Below are positions 5,195 to 31,921 of a stretch of 31,921 nucleotides of DNA, one piece after another (position 1 is the first letter of the stretch; the number at the start of each line of letters is the position of its first letter). This stretch comes from Candidatus Omnitrophota bacterium (lineage in GTDB: Bacteria > Omnitrophota > Gorgyraeia > Gygaellales > Profunditerraquicolaceae), in assembly GCA_028713875.1 (NCBI GenBank), contig JAQTNM010000001.1, positions 1 to 31,921 on the forward strand. The letters run 5' to 3'. Position numbers and translations under genes: made by a program. The notes under the pieces were generated by a model. That model made no database searches, was not told the origin of the DNA, and saw nothing but the letters and a program-made list of their open reading frames with translations.

Positions 5195-5265
5195 CAGGAG
5201 CGGCAGGAGTCGAACCTGCAGTCACGGTTTTGGAGACCGTTGGTTTGCCATTAACCGACGCTCCT
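5195..5265 (-). tRNA. tRNA-Trp (CCA); 3' CCA not encoded
   Basis: Acceptor AGGAGCG/CGCTCCT, anticodon arm ACGGT-CTCCAAA-ACCGT, T arm GCAGG-TTCGACT-CCTGC. Confidence 0.97.
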
Positions 5266-5470: not shown

Positions 5471-5543
5471 AGCTGGAGACGGGAATTGAACCCGTGACCC
5501 CGTCCTTACCAAGGACGTGCTCTGCCAACTGAGCTACTCCAGC
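5471..5543 (-). tRNA. tRNA-Thr (GGT); 3' CCA not encoded
   Basis: GCTGGAG/CTCCAGC acceptor, TAGCTCAGTTGGCAGAGC D arm, CGTCC-TTGGTAA-GGACG anticodon arm, ACGGG-TTCAATT-CCCGT T arm. Confidence 0.98.
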
Positions 5544-5736: not shown

Positions 5737-5766
5737 CACTTTTTTACAAATTTTTTAGCATAACGC

Positions 5767-5834
5767 ATCTCATTTTTTTGGCCTCCGCACGCTGAAAATT
5801 TTCTAATGCGTGCTCCGGCCAAGAAGCCTGAGAT
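5767..5834 (-). repeat. Internally deleted copy of the ~170-bp hairpin element, inverted relative to the full copies
   Basis: Minus strand ATCTCAGGCTTCTTGGCCGGAGCACGCATTAGAAAATTTTCAGCGTGCGGAGGCCAAAAAAATGAGAT matches the left arm (GCTGGAGCGCGCATTAG / GCTGGAGGCTGCATAAGAAAAT) fused to the right arm (ATTTTCAGCAGCC / GCGCTGCGGAAGC) of the full copies. Confidence 0.7.
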
Positions 5835-6003
5835 ATCCTTTCCTGGAAAATTATCGTAATTTTAAGCCCCTGGGCGTCTTACGCTCGTTCGGAAACGGTA
5901 TTGAATTTAGGAGACCCTACTCAAAAACACTCGTTACAATTAATATCCGGTCAAATGAATTGTGTTGCTTATTGATAAATAACAGCCGGGTTAAGTTGTG
6001 GAA

Positions 6004-6034: not shown

Positions 6035-6481
6035 TTATCCGGAGCCCGGAAGGCCAAAGCACGGGTCAAACCCCTCAGTATAAAAGCAGTGCCAGTTGCT
6101 TTGGCCTGTGTCCAGATGATATTCCAGATAGTATTCATAACCCCTAGATGCGTTTGGGGTCTTGCCGCTACTGGTGCATCTGGTTGCTCGCAAGCGCAGC
6201 GAGTCTGACGTTATAGTCCCAATTTCATACCTATAGAAGTTTGTAGATACACAGGAATTAGTCGCCCCTACGTCGGCATTCACTATCCCGGTCAGCGAAC
6301 CATTTTTCCAATAATATTCTGTCGCCATCTGACGCATATTTCCAATACGTACTTTAGCTTCGGCAAGGCGGGTGCTTTCTACTTGTTTGCTGTATTGGGT
6401 AAAACCTAAGGTGGCCAGGATGCCTAAAATAACTATAACTACGACTAATTCCAACAGGGTAAACGCGCGGTTTTTGATCAT
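6035..6481 (-). CDS. Type IV pilin-like protein (prepilin N-terminal cleavage/methylation domain)
   Basis: Class III signal MIKNRA|FTLLELVVVIVILGILA with Glu at +5, amphipathic helix QYSKQVESTRLAEA, and four Cys in the C-terminal half. Confidence 0.92.
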   Translation of the reverse strand: MIKNRAFTLLELVVVIVILGILATLGFTQYSKQVESTRLAEAKVRIGNMRQMATEYYWKNGSLTGIVNADVGATNSCVSTNFYRYEIGTITSDSLRLRATRCTSSGKTPNASRGYEYYLEYHLDTGQSNWHCFYTEGFDPCFGLPGSG

Positions 6482-6562: not shown

Positions 6563-6732
6563 GAAATTTTAGGTTTTTGCTGGAGCGCGCATTAGGATTT
6601 TTTCGGCAAGAGTGTGCAAGGATTTACGAGGAGTGGAAAACGCTAATCCGATACAGGCTACTCGCAGCGACGAAGTAAACCGTAGCACACGGCGAAAAAA
6701 TTAGAGCGCTGCGGAAGCAAAACCAAAAATTC
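6563..6732. repeat. ~170-bp imperfect-palindrome element, full copy 1 (REP/MITE-like or structured RNA)
   Basis: Nested inverted repeats and a 26-nt core AACGCTAATCCGATACAGGCTACTCG (6639-6664) identical to 30869-30894. Confidence 0.9.
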
Positions 6733-6770
6733 CTACTTGAGCAGAAAATTGACAGACTAAATGTATAACT

Positions 6771-7556
6771 TTATAGATTAGCTAAGTGGGCGAAATCGGA
6801 GAGGGCCAGGTCTTCGGGGCGGATGTTTGCATTTATATTGTAATTGCGGAAAAATTTTTCCAGCTTTTCGGATGGAACAGTCTCACGAAGGCTGTTCCTT
6901 AATGTCTTTCTCCTCTTGTTGAATGCCGAGCGGATAACCTTGAAAAAATATTCTTCGTCCTTCACTTTTACCGCGGGCTGGTCTCTTATCTCCAGTGACA
7001 GGAAAGACGAATCCACTTTCGGAGCGGGATTAAAACTCGTATTCTTAATGGAAAACATGACTCTGGGCAGGCAATAGTATTGGACAAAACAGCTGAATGA
7101 GCCGTAATCCTTGGAACCCGGCTTGGCGCAGATCCTGAGGGCAAATTCTTTCTGGACGGTGAGGAATATTTTTCCGATGATGTCGCGGTATCCCAACAGA
7201 TGCGCGATAATCGGGGAGGTAATGTAATAGGGCACGTTACCGATCACTTTTATTTTTTGGCGCAAGCTACCGAAATGACGCGCTAAATCAAGTTTCAATA
7301 TATCGGCTTTAATTATTTTTATGTTTTGGTGTCCCTGCGTAGAATCCTTTAATGCCTGCCACAGGTCCTTGTCAAACTCTACTGCATAGACGGTATCTAC
7401 ATGCTCGGCGATCAGATTCGTGATCTCTCCCCTGCCTGCTCCTATTTCCAGCACTATGTCTGTTTTCTGCAGCTGACAGGAAACGGCGATCTTTTTGCGG
7501 ATATTTTTGTCGGCGAGGAAATTCTGGCCTAGTCTTTTTTTAGGTTTAGGGTACAT
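6771..7556 (-). CDS. rsmA: 16S rRNA m6,2A1518/1519 dimethyltransferase RsmA/KsgA
   Basis: KKRLGQNFL, LEIGAGRG, GNVPYYITSPII, PAPKVDS, AFNKRRKTLRNSL. Confidence 0.98.
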   Translation of the reverse strand: MYPKPKKRLGQNFLADKNIRKKIAVSCQLQKTDIVLEIGAGRGEITNLIAEHVDTVYAVEFDKDLWQALKDSTQGHQNIKIIKADILKLDLARHFGSLRQKIKVIGNVPYYITSPIIAHLLGYRDIIGKIFLTVQKEFALRICAKPGSKDYGSFSCFVQYYCLPRVMFSIKNTSFNPAPKVDSSFLSLEIRDQPAVKVKDEEYFFKVIRSAFNKRRKTLRNSLRETVPSEKLEKFFRNYNINANIRPEDLALSDFAHLANL

Positions 7557-29491: not shown

Positions 29492-30775
29492 TTAATCGGC
29501 ATGCCGGGCTGATACGTAATCCTGGATTATTGTTTTTAATTTAACCGCAACTATCTTATTTTTAAGCTTGAGCCCTGACTTAAATAATACCCGGATGTAA
29601 TTACCGGTGTAGCCCTGCCAGAAACCTTCCCGCGTCTTGCCTTCAACCAACACCGGCATGTTTCTGCCTACAAAACGTCTTTTGTAATTGAAACTGCTGT
29701 CTTGGCTTACTTTCTGCAGGCGCTCAAACCTGTCTTTAACCAGCCGCGGATCAAGCTCTCCCCTGAATCTCCTGAAAGCAGCGGTTCCTTCTCTTGACGA
29801 ATACGGGAAAACATGCACTTTGAGGGGCGAGATCTTTTTAATTAACTGCGCCGTATTTTTAAAATGGGCCTCCTTTTCCTCCGGAAAACCCACTATGACA
29901 TCGGTGCTGATGGCAATTTCCGGGATGCGTCTTTTTATGCGACGGATAATTTCCAGGTAATCTTTTGCTGTATACGGCCGGTTCATTTTTTTAAGGACGG
30001 TGTCATCGCCGCTTTGCAAGGGGATATGCAAATGCCGGCATAATTTTTGCGAAGAAGATAATTTTGCAATCAACTTATCGGTAACATCATTGAGTTCTAT
30101 GGAGCTTAACCTTATACGCAATAGCCCTTCTATGTTTTCTAACTGCTCAATAACATCAACTATGTCCGCCTTAGGGTTAAGGTCCCTGCCGTATGCGCCC
30201 AGGCAGATACCGCATAAAACTATTTCCTGGAACCCGTTTTTTACCAACCCCCTTGCCTCCGCAACAATATACTCAAGCAGCCTGCTGCGCGAGTGGCCCC
30301 TGACTAAAGGCACTTTACAATATGAACAGAAATTATTGCAGCCGTCCTGTATTTTTAAAAAAGCGCGGGTGCGGCCGGAAAAACCGGATATGCCTTTACT
30401 CGCCGCGCTGGCCCCTTCCTTATGCCTTTTGAGGCGGAATCGGCCCTTAAGCTGCTTGAATAAATCACCCCTATCCTTATTTTTCACAATTAAGCTTACC
30501 CCGCCTATTTCTTTAATCCTGCCTGCGTCTAATTCAGTCAAACATCCGGTAACTATAATCTTTGCCTTGGGATTATTTTTTATTGCCTTGCGGATAATAT
30601 TAAGGGAATCAGAATCTGCGCGGTGGGTCACGGTGCAGGTATTGATGACACAGATATCCGCAGCCAAGCCGTTATCCAGCTCCCTAAACCCGTAATTAAT
30701 GAACTGCTCGCGGATAACCTGAGTATCATATTGATTAACCTTACAGCCTAATGTATAAAATTTTACTGTTTTCAT
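29492..30775 (-). CDS. mtaB: tRNA t6A37 methylthiotransferase MtaB
   Basis: LGCKVNQYD, INTCTVT, radical-SAM CNNFCSYC, HIPLQSGDD, DVIVGFP, C-terminal TRAM domain. Follows rsmE. Start set at ATG 30775. Confidence 0.93.
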   Translation of the reverse strand: MKTVKFYTLGCKVNQYDTQVIREQFINYGFRELDNGLAADICVINTCTVTHRADSDSLNIIRKAIKNNPKAKIIVTGCLTELDAGRIKEIGGVSLIVKNKDRGDLFKQLKGRFRLKRHKEGASAASKGISGFSGRTRAFLKIQDGCNNFCSYCKVPLVRGHSRSRLLEYIVAEARGLVKNGFQEIVLCGICLGAYGRDLNPKADIVDVIEQLENIEGLLRIRLSSIELNDVTDKLIAKLSSSQKLCRHLHIPLQSGDDTVLKKMNRPYTAKDYLEIIRRIKRRIPEIAISTDVIVGFPEEKEAHFKNTAQLIKKISPLKVHVFPYSSREGTAAFRRFRGELDPRLVKDRFERLQKVSQDSSFNYKRRFVGRNMPVLVEGKTREGFWQGYTGNYIRVLFKSGLKLKNKIVAVKLKTIIQDYVSARHAD

Positions 30776-30791
30776 AATCAATTTGCTTAAG

Positions 30792-30965
30792 TTGAATTTT
30801 AGGCTTTTGCTGGAGGCTGCATAAGAAAATTTTTGGCAAATGTCTGCGAGGAATTACGAGGAGCAGAGAACGCTAATCCGATACAGGCTACTCGGAGCGA
30901 CGAAGTAAGCCGAAGCAGACGGCAAAAATTTTCAGCAGCCGCAAGCAAAGCCTAAAATTACTCAA
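30792..30965. repeat. ~170-bp imperfect-palindrome element, full copy 2
   Basis: Termini TTGAATTTTAGGCTTTTGCT / AGCAAAGCCTAAAATTACTCAA. Core 30869-30894 is identical to copy 1. Confidence 0.9.
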
Positions 30966-30966
30966 T

Positions 30967-31701
30967 CTAACCCTGATACAGGAATTTTATGTAACTGGCA
31001 ACTGCTACCGCCGCCGTCTCTACCCGTAACACTTCTTTACCCAGCGAAACCGCCACGCATCCTGATTTTTTGGCCAACTCCACCTCTGCCGGAGAAAAAT
31101 CTCCTTCCGGCCCGATAAAAACCAGGATATTCTTTGCGCCTGAACCCCGCAGGACATCCTTCAGGCTTCTGCGCTCTCCTTCTAAAGTAGGAATCAATTT
31201 CAAGTCGTAACCTTTGGCCCCGGACAATGCCTCTTTTACGCTCTGCACCGGCTCAATAACCGGCAGCGAACTTCTCTGGCTCTGCTGGCTTGCGCTTTGC
31301 GCCACATTGCGCCAATGGCCAAGGCGCAGTTCTTTTTTTTTCTTATCCAGCCTGACTATCGTGCGTTCTGTTTCTAAAGGGATGACCCTGTCCACACCCA
31401 GCTGCGTAAGCTTATCAACAATATCGTCCATACTGGATTTTTTGGGTATGGCGCAGGCCAGGCTTAAAACCATATTCCGGGGTATGGCGCAGGCAGGATA
31501 AATCTTTTTTATATTCAAGGCAAGCGCGGGTTTAAGCTTTTCTACTGAGCAGAGATATTCGTTTGTTTTTTCATCAAAGACAATAACCTCTTGCCCGGCT
31601 TTAATCCGCAGCACGTCCTTGATATAATGCTGTTGTTTATTGTCCGCAATGGTTATTTTCTTGCCTGATATATTCTCTGAAGGCGCAAAGAATCTACGCA
31701 T
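30967..31701 (-). CDS. rsmE: 16S rRNA m3U1498 methyltransferase RsmE
   Basis: HYIKDVLR, KLTQLGV, AQSASQQSQR, FIGPEGDFS, LRVETAA. Start set at ATG 31701. Confidence 0.97.
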   Translation of the reverse strand: MRRFFAPSENISGKKITIADNKQQHYIKDVLRIKAGQEVIVFDEKTNEYLCSVEKLKPALALNIKKIYPACAIPRNMVLSLACAIPKKSSMDDIVDKLTQLGVDRVIPLETERTIVRLDKKKKELRLGHWRNVAQSASQQSQRSSLPVIEPVQSVKEALSGAKGYDLKLIPTLEGERRSLKDVLRGSGAKNILVFIGPEGDFSPAEVELAKKSGCVAVSLGKEVLRVETAAVAVASYIKFLYQG

Positions 31702-31705
31702 AGCC

Positions 31706-31921
31706 TTAATGTCTTGCAAATAATATTAAATTAATGCCCAGAAACACCATGATCAGCCCGCAAATAAAAGCAACTACCTTATAATAAGCCTCTTTCTGCT
31801 TCAGTAAAAAACGCGGGATTAGCCCGGAAAGTACCGCTAACACCAGCAAAGGCGATATGACCGTGCCCAGACCAAAAGCCAGGCAATAAACCAGGGCCTG
31901 CGCCCAGGTTTTGGAAACCAG
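31706..31921 (-). CDS. 3' end of a multi-TM protein, likely DsbD_2/TauE-SafE (cytochrome c biogenesis TM) family; partial
   Basis: Hand translation ...AQALVYCLAFGLGTVISPLLVLAVLSG...ICGLIMVFLGINLILFARH*. The AFGLGT motif is typical of the family. Confidence 0.65.
   Translation of the reverse strand: MVSKTWAQALVYCLAFGLGTVISPLLVLAVLSGLIPRFLLKQKEAYYKVVAFICGLIMVFLGINLILFARH

Follow-up and report, generated by a model that had tools for sequence, protein, structure and literature searches.

A gene-less hairpin repeat of about 170 bases in Candidatus Omnitrophota, apparently previously undescribed

Small hairpin repeats such as REP, MITE, ERIC and NTS shape operon expression, recombination and genome assembly, and we know of no mobilising enzyme for most of them. 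The stretch of DNA analysed here (31,921 nt, referred to below as the window) comes from a MAG of a Candidatus Omnitrophota bacterium (1.46 Mb in 207 contigs, 46.7% G+C, 88.5% complete, reported contamination 4.7%). An earlier note, made from the letters of the window alone, had described two dispersed copies of a palindromic sequence in it, lying in the same orientation and about 80% identical, and had left two readings of them side by side, a gene-less repeat mobilised in trans or an unannotated structured RNA. The locus thus raises the question of what such an element is, which of its parts are held constant, and how it came to lie between the genes that flank it. Both copies are real, at the positions and in the orientation given there, and their measured identity is 81%; they are not a pair, however, as the whole genome holds about 24. 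The members of the family and their parts within the window are as follows.

5765..5837, minus strand: mini copy of about 72 nt, internally deleted (E 1.6e-5)
6563..6735, plus strand: copy A, full-length hairpin repeat (R1 176 bits)
6624..6678, plus strand: inner module of copy A (TTAC-GAGGAG, a variable hairpin, CGACGAAG-TAA)
30792..30965, plus strand: copy B, full-length hairpin repeat (R1 199 bits)
30854..30908, plus strand: inner module of copy B, built like that of copy A

Copies A and B both lie in gaps flanked by minus-strand genes. Copy A has rsmA/ksgA (6771-7556, -) on one side and a type IV pilin-like gene (6035-6481, -) on the other, while copy B takes up the space from an mtaB/MiaB-like gene (29492-30781, -) to rsmE (30967-31719, -). 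In the inner module of copy A, two tandem G.A motifs enclose one covarying G-C pair. The mini copy consists of the outer arms joined at a self-complementary GAAAATTTTC segment, the inner ~100 nt being gone. It brackets the pilin-like gene together with copy A, and two tRNA genes (5195-5265 and 5471-5543, -) are found just downstream of it.

Distribution, fold and conserved sequence

The hairpin repeat is multicopy, patchily distributed and confined to one order of Omnitrophota. In the MAG, a search with iterated nhmmer and a covariance model (R1) yielded 19 full-length copies, four that are cut by contig ends, and five minis. The repeat is 165-190 nt long and contains no ORF, all copies in the MAG are intergenic, and the full-length ones are 74-88% identical to copy A. 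No identical or nearly identical copies occur in the MAG (the best match of copy A reaches 88%), and hence no recent burst is visible. A divergent copy was found on a small contig (C193:1084-1928), where it lies upstream of an additional tmk gene (69% identity to the tmk on contig C60); because of this additional tmk, the small contig probably stems from another related organism in the bin, perhaps another strain.

Outside the host MAG, R1 was run on 60 relatives from the same order and detected 1-15 copies in each of 29. Over the 61 genomes of the order, 30 of which are positive with the host MAG included, the copy number thus runs from 0 to 24, and several relatives of more than 94% completeness are without a copy. 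An exact-arm scan recovered the repeat from at least 120 metagenome contigs; among the matches listed, 79 are full-length and about 30 near-full, none of them being kilobases long. Full-length matches among 100 pattern-selected contigs, drawn from all phyla, were Omnitrophota-type records only. The earlier note had pointed to similar palindromes in Desulfobacterota, a link that found no support, the organism itself and all full-length relatives being Candidatus Omnitrophota. Phage records gave no match to the repeat with blastn, and neither the arm pattern nor the whole element matched in viral contigs; two viral-contig matches of the core pattern look like chance and were set aside.

In four metagenomes, the repeat has a summed contig depth of up to about 10-150 times the depth of its flanks. 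It also breaks the contigs in these data sets, as they are broken at the four MAG copies that lie at contig ends. The empty allele was not seen in the DNA contigs of the same four metagenomes. The repeat is apparently previously undescribed. In Rfam 15 it had no hit, either at gathering thresholds or at E<=5, so that the comparison with Rfam that the earlier note had proposed returned no existing family, and no description of Omnitrophota repeats was found in the searchable literature, where the motif letters matched unrelated primers only.

Each copy had been read as one long nested hairpin, in which selection acts on structure in the arms and on sequence at the tip. The first part of this reading is borne out. 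Copies A and B fold far better than shuffled sequences both as RNA (z = -3.4 for copy A and -6.3 for copy B) and as single-stranded DNA (z = -4.9 and -6.1, respectively), with the reverse strands folding about equally well, and the arm differences that had been listed between the two copies are real compensatory changes. For 18 MAG copies aligned with MAFFT, RNAalifold predicts a single rod of seven helices, in which 95% of cells are paired and 19 of the 45 pairs show double changes; none of 500 shuffles was as good, and slid controls were 30-51% paired. An alignment of 101 copies from 30 genomes, which was made to the model and favours structure somewhat, has 96.2% of its cells paired and compensatory double changes in 40 of the 45 pairs. 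Its covariation score is 0.517, compared with 0.146 in shuffles and 0.04-0.07 with the partners slid (35-47% paired), and again 0 of 500 shuffles did as well. Covariation in these alignments supports selected structure in the arms.

The second part of that reading is not supported. The 26-nt apex, which had seemed invariant, is identical in copies A and B and a few others only; indeed, no part of the element varies more than the apical loop (typically 22 nt), for which 101 copies have 84 different sequences. It is the internal loops that are conserved in sequence, together with the TTACGAGGAG/CGACGAAGTAA module below the tip. The near-invariant letters (>=90-97%), namely CATtAG, GGC, AGG, TTACGA, GA.G..GTAA, CCG.AG and ACGGC, sit in asymmetric internal loops and at helix junctions, where they face each other as CATtAG/CAG, GGC/ACGGC, AAGG/CCGnAG and TTAC-GA-G-GA-G/C-GA-C-GAA-GTAA. 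The single G-C pair between the tandem G.A motifs covaries to C-G (pair 89-133), and an extra branch of 16-19 nt follows GGC in about 29 of the 101 copies. Compensatory change preserves the pairing of the hairpin, while the asymmetric loops and the TTACGAGGAG/CGACGAAGTAA module are preserved as sequence. Since the loops are conserved and asymmetric and the tip is free, the pattern argues for recognition of sequence in the folded strand and against mere homogenisation of a palindrome.

Insertion sites, orientation and derivatives

The gap that copy B fills is hardly a gap in most relatives: both genes were found in 24 related genera of the family, and in 19 of these rsmE directly adjoins or overlaps mtaB or is separated from it by less than 15 nt. 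The hairpin repeat is found at this junction in none of the 24, its 174-nt element being present in the host MAG only. There, rsmE ends in a C-terminus and a stop codon that are new, acquired at the junction with copy B. Other sequences occur at rsmE|mtaB as well (loci L170, L174 and L184): two relatives have a hairpin of 44-53 nt (CCTTCGACT.CGCTCAGGG...), and in one, tandem and inverted units of 24 nt make up a block of 130 nt.

A second junction, cysS|tmk, is tight in 10 genomes (gap of -1 to 46 nt) and filled by the hairpin repeat in at least six (the host MAG, G011, G021, G025, G028 and G062), and the small contig C193 shows the filled state too. In about 10 further genomes, unrelated long hairpin families are found there instead; at least three such families, 80-340 nt in length, were seen at cysS|tmk (L283, L286, L287, L292-L294, L297, L299, L300, L307). 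For palindromic insertions, cysS|tmk is either a general hotspot or a site at which they are tolerated. Also in the metagenomes, tmk and cysS are the commonest neighbours of the repeat, and other sites that recur across genera are located upstream of ribF and in the MTHFR/CODH cluster. A GTAG tag in front of two of the cysS-tmk copies was considered and discarded, as it is only the context of the cysS stop codon. The repeat is inserted DNA, since the junctions at which it sits are tight in relatives, and the comparison of filled with empty sites, which the earlier note had recommended, found both states at rsmE|mtaB and at cysS|tmk.

Copies that share a site are usually closest to other copies of their own genome and not to each other, and their orientation is mixed at the ribF and MTHFR sites, which together point to repeated insertion or to homogenisation within genomes. 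Upstream of tmk, all 14 copies are in sense orientation and 13-56 nt from the gene. They could represent an inherited functional cis-element rather than repeated insertion; the arrangement fits inheritance with gene conversion, orientation-specific insertion set by the direction of replication, or selection at the site. No target duplication, consistent flanking direct repeat or terminal dinucleotide was found in 100 copies, in line with the earlier note, which saw no clear target-site duplication, and the ends of the hairpin vary in length between copies. The flanks, in which a target motif, a tag or a promoter was looked for, hold no more than 0.2 bits of information, and thus display no target motif, tag or conserved promoter.

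Most copies (81 of 91 classified) lie between co-directional genes, 51 of them antisense and 30 sense; of the remainder, five are located between convergent and five between divergent genes. For copy A, no promoter-like site is found on its own strand, within the element or before it. On the strand of the model, G.U (or G.T) pairs outnumber A.C pairs by 100 to 44. This asymmetry has the same direction in sense (30:10) and antisense copies (50:26), and consequently belongs to the element and not to host transcription. The outer stem, whose alignment is the least secure, contributes most of the excess (66:22), while the inner helices give 34:22, which is not significant, and the MAFFT alignment of the MAG copies 18:8; as a strand signal the excess is suggestive only.

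Derivatives of the full-length unit occur in two forms. Head-to-head dimers are present in two relatives (L042 and L044), and in the five minis of the MAG the 5' arm is joined to the 3' arm at GAAAATTTTC, which is present in both arms. The minis are thus deletions between two GAAAATTTTC segments, the expected product of slippage on a DNA hairpin. They do not represent one recent clone, because their stems differ.

Candidate enzymes and the inner module

The earlier note saw no transposase in the window, and we found none near the copies; its suggestion to look for a RAYT/TnpA(Y1) partner led to no candidate. The MAG has one Y1 transposase gene (C3:19996-20706, 236 aa; locus C3:19925-20700, L168:1390-2176), whose best match is the model of REP-associated tyrosine transposases, below the cut-off. 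On both sides of this gene stand inverted copies of another short repeat, GGGGACGTTTCTA, which has 13 copies in the MAG, and GGGGACGTTTCTA and the Y1 gene form a second, classical REP/RAYT-type system. Y1 genes do not track the hairpin repeat (18 of 29 element-positive and 26 of 31 element-negative genomes have one), which was found at 0 of 11 Y1 loci. The MAG also encodes one GIY-YIG protein of 85 aa, the size of an Ssn nuclease (C195:714-971). Its gene is not flanked by the hairpin repeat in the MAG or in 11 relatives, and Ssn-type GIY-YIG genes do not track the repeat either (19 of 29 element-positive versus 16 of 31 element-negative genomes); in G039 and G060, each with nine copies of the repeat, no homologue was found (these MAGs are 78-90% complete).

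The remaining enzymes of the MAG show no closer association. A group-II-intron-like reverse transcriptase of 289 aa, without the maturase/endonuclease part (C145:1-2895), adjoins a large serine recombinase gene on a 4.2-kb contig and is not linked to the hairpin repeat; it is present in 7 of 60 relatives and absent from the high-copy genomes G021, G003, G016, G039 and G060. Two tyrosine recombinase genes are likewise without linkage to the repeat, and TnpB, DDE_3, DDE_Tnp_1, rve and IS110 were not found in the 88.5%-complete MAG. Altogether, the repeat was found at 0 of 23 loci of candidate enzyme genes, and there is no enzyme candidate among the recurrent neighbours of 100 genomic and about 115 metagenomic copies. 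These neighbours are housekeeping genes (tmk, cysS, ribF and the MTHFR cluster) and, in the host MAG, pilin-like genes. Here a pilin-like gene lies within about 130 nt of six of the 19 full copies, in all six cases on the 5' side of the repeat, and of further partial and mini copies. The pilin-like family has roughly 40 members in the MAG, with mutual identities of 43-60%; its genes show an N-terminal methylation motif and match ComP_DUS weakly, with scores that stay below the cut-off. The enrichment of pilin-like genes beside the repeat was not seen in relatives, and the link may only mark tolerant, fast-evolving regions.

Within the MAG, the inner module is confined to the 170-nt repeat. In genomes at large, the pattern TTACGASGAG-N25-50-CGASGAAGTAA matches at least 109 genome contigs, compared with about 30 matches expected by chance in the whole collection (a rough estimate). 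Among the matches listed, about 25 are the Omnitrophota hairpin repeat, and some 45 share flanks that were not part of the query, GTCA before and TCTC after. The latter come from Bacteroidota, Gastranaerophilales, Brocadiaceae, Chloroflexota, Stahlbacteria, Patescibacteria and others; in many cases an inverted partner unit comes next, and the complete arrangement folds into multi-hairpin palindromes. The inner 21 letters of the module, TTACGAGGAG...CGACGAAGTAA, recur unchanged inside CGTCA-tagged palindromes from many phyla. About 20 of the listed matches are haloarchaeal and have T- and A-tract flanks, several abutting the 3' end of a tRNA gene. The haloarchaeal core, which consists of TTACGAGGAG, a GC-rich hairpin and CGACGAAGTAA, was seen at L057, L067, L069, L079, L082, L083, L094 and L096, and at the further loci L101, L103, L115, L117, L118, L138, L139 and L143. 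Rfam had no match for two haloarchaeal core loci and no hit for the cross-phylum units, and a tblastn search with the GIY-YIG protein of the MAG found nothing beside these units. Seven cyanobacterial matches of the module were rejected as relatives; they lie inside one conserved ORF of 334 aa.

The CGTCA-tagged palindromes have the layout CGTCA-ATT...AAT-C of two known groups, CGTC-tagged REPs and NTS of Neisseria. CGTC-tagged REPs had no known transposase (PMC3733652), and NTS, with the layout CGTC-ATT...AAT-C, are bound as ssDNA by the GIY-YIG nuclease SsnA, which cuts just upstream of the NTS hairpin and needs the trailing C (PMC11893778). Of such a unit, the Omnitrophota repeat retains the interior only: its module is preceded by AGGA(T/A), not by GTCA, and both the CGTC tag and the trailing C are absent. 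The published SRM pattern has no hit in the hairpin repeats and none in the cross-phylum units; its 8 hits in the MAG, against 4-12 in shuffles, are no enrichment. It is conceivable, if rather unlikely, that TTAC-GAGGAG, a free hairpin and CGACGAAG-TAA make up a docking site for a protein that binds or cuts single-stranded nucleic acid and that haloarchaea share with many bacterial phyla. In that case, one ancient recognition module would be carried by different vehicles, namely the Omnitrophota element, the palindromes with a CGTCA tag and the haloarchaeal hairpins next to tRNA genes.

Explanations and known systems

The explanation that we consider the probable one, though with considerable reserve, is that of a non-autonomous, structure-dependent mobile repeat of REP/MITE-like kind, which would propagate as a folded single strand and be recognised via its conserved loops by a trans-acting enzyme. 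In this respect the proposal of the earlier note, a dispersed repeat without genes that is mobilised in trans, gains support from the filled and empty junctions. The propagating strand would most likely be ssDNA exposed at replication, and a protein encoded elsewhere would recognise the unpaired or G.A-paired loops, as is the case for REP/REPIN and IS200/IS605-type elements. The repeat would then land without target duplication in short gaps between co-directional genes, its stems being free to drift as long as pairing holds and the tip loop being wholly free. Effects on the flanking operons, as an RNA hairpin or a processing site, would be secondary.

Alternatively, the repeat could be a structured RNA that the host uses, either as an ncRNA present in many copies or as a cis-acting element of operons (for instance a hairpin for processing, stability or decoupling), with the loops as protein-binding or tertiary RNA motifs. 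We regard this as possible but unlikely on balance. The very strong covariation over order-level divergence speaks for it, as do the tandem G.A loops, which are typical of RNA protein-binding motifs, and the tolerance of G.U over A.C on one strand; moreover, the copies between co-directional genes would be transcribed, and those upstream of tmk keep a uniform sense and spacing. Against a transcribed function, however, the operon-internal copies are antisense in 51 of 81 cases and, as copy A has no promoter-like site of its own and no flank is conserved, most copies would be transcribed as the other strand, while the G.U excess has the same sign in the antisense copies. Furthermore, about half of the related genomes do without the repeat, several of them nearly complete, orientation is mixed at two other shared sites, minis that lack the whole inner part persist, and no Rfam family matches. 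Less probable still is a palindrome that is passive and has no machinery of its own: illegitimate or homologous recombination would spread it, hairpin-templated repair would copy arm onto arm, and the covariation would not reflect selection. The missing enzyme, target duplication and target motif, the homogenisation of copies within genomes, the hairpin slippage products and the several unrelated hairpin families at the same junctions count in its favour. We nevertheless think it improbable, because arm-to-arm copying would erase the asymmetric loops and the polar module, which are the best-conserved parts in 30 genomes; the precise insertion of whole units into tight junctions also tells against it.

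Finally, the repeat might be the Omnitrophota version of the CGTC-REP/NTS-SRM elements, its module being bound as ssDNA and cut nearby by the Ssn-type GIY-YIG protein of the MAG, with effects on DNA uptake or recombination near pilin genes. The identity of the inner 21 letters to CGTCA-tagged palindromes, the ability of Ssn to cut ssDNA beside hairpins of NTS layout (PMC11893778), the orphan state of CGTC REPs, for which no transposase was known (PMC3733652), the single GIY-YIG gene and the adjoining pilin-like genes all suggested this reading. It appears very improbable all the same, given that the Omnitrophota repeat has neither the tag nor the trailing C that Ssn requires, that the SRM pattern hits no element and is not enriched in the MAG, that the GIY-YIG gene is nowhere flanked by the repeat, and that two nine-copy genomes have no homologue.

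The hairpin repeat offers an unusually clean case, in that more than 100 diverged copies tell apart the positions that must pair, those that must stay unpaired and those that are free; this is the information needed for a search for the partner protein. It also ties an element specific to Omnitrophota to a sequence module common to phyla, and possibly to domains. In practice, MAG assemblies break at the repeat, which can also be taken wrongly for an sRNA or a riboswitch.

Among known systems, REPs are short palindromes (20-40 bp) with a conserved 5' GTAG tag, and their RAYT gene is flanked by the same repeats. The hairpin repeat shares with REP/REPIN-RAYT a dispersed, extragenic and gene-less occurrence, hairpins formed by a single strand, the lack of a target duplication, head-to-head dimers, a copy number that varies between relatives, and mobilisation in trans, which for the Omnitrophota repeat is the presumed route. 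It differs in that it has five times the length, consists of several helices with internal loops that are conserved, and lacks the GTAG tag; the Y1 gene of the MAG, besides, is flanked by GGGGACGTTTCTA and not by the hairpin repeat, and Y1 genes do not co-occur with the latter among the related genomes. PATE, which derive from IS200/IS605, have different subterminal hairpins at their two ends and a conserved target of 4-5 nt 5' of the left end, whereas the Omnitrophota repeat is a single whole-length hairpin without a conserved 5' flank. Integron attC sites form arrays beside intI and have R''/R' boxes in the order RYYYAAC...GTTRRRY; the Omnitrophota copies, by contrast, are dispersed singletons, and their end motifs have the opposite order (TTTTAGG...CCTAAAA).

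The CGTC-REPs (dRS3/NTS, RPE-4/6) and SRM are similar in the identical letters of the module, in their polar hairpins and in their clustering near pilin genes (PMC3733652; PMC11893778), but the Omnitrophota repeat has no CGTC tag, trailing C, SRM match, or linkage to and co-occurrence with GIY-YIG genes, and its module sits atop a much longer hairpin. In size and build it comes close to ERIC/IRU and RU-2 of enterobacteria and the Correia elements of Neisseria, which are likewise imperfect whole-length palindromes of 100-200 bp, intergenic and co-transcribed, present or absent at conserved junctions, and accompanied by shorter deletion derivatives (PMC2229807, PMC3184786, PMC10969869). Like MITEs it is small, non-coding and multicopy, with insertion polymorphism between relatives, yet it has no terminal inverted repeats with defined ends and no TA or other target duplication, no related autonomous IS with the same ends was found, and its covariation spans order-level divergence. 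The hairpin repeat is thus not a member of the REP-RAYT, SRM-Ssn, MITE, PATE or attC groups, and what it has in common with such repeats is the form of a polar single-strand hairpin.
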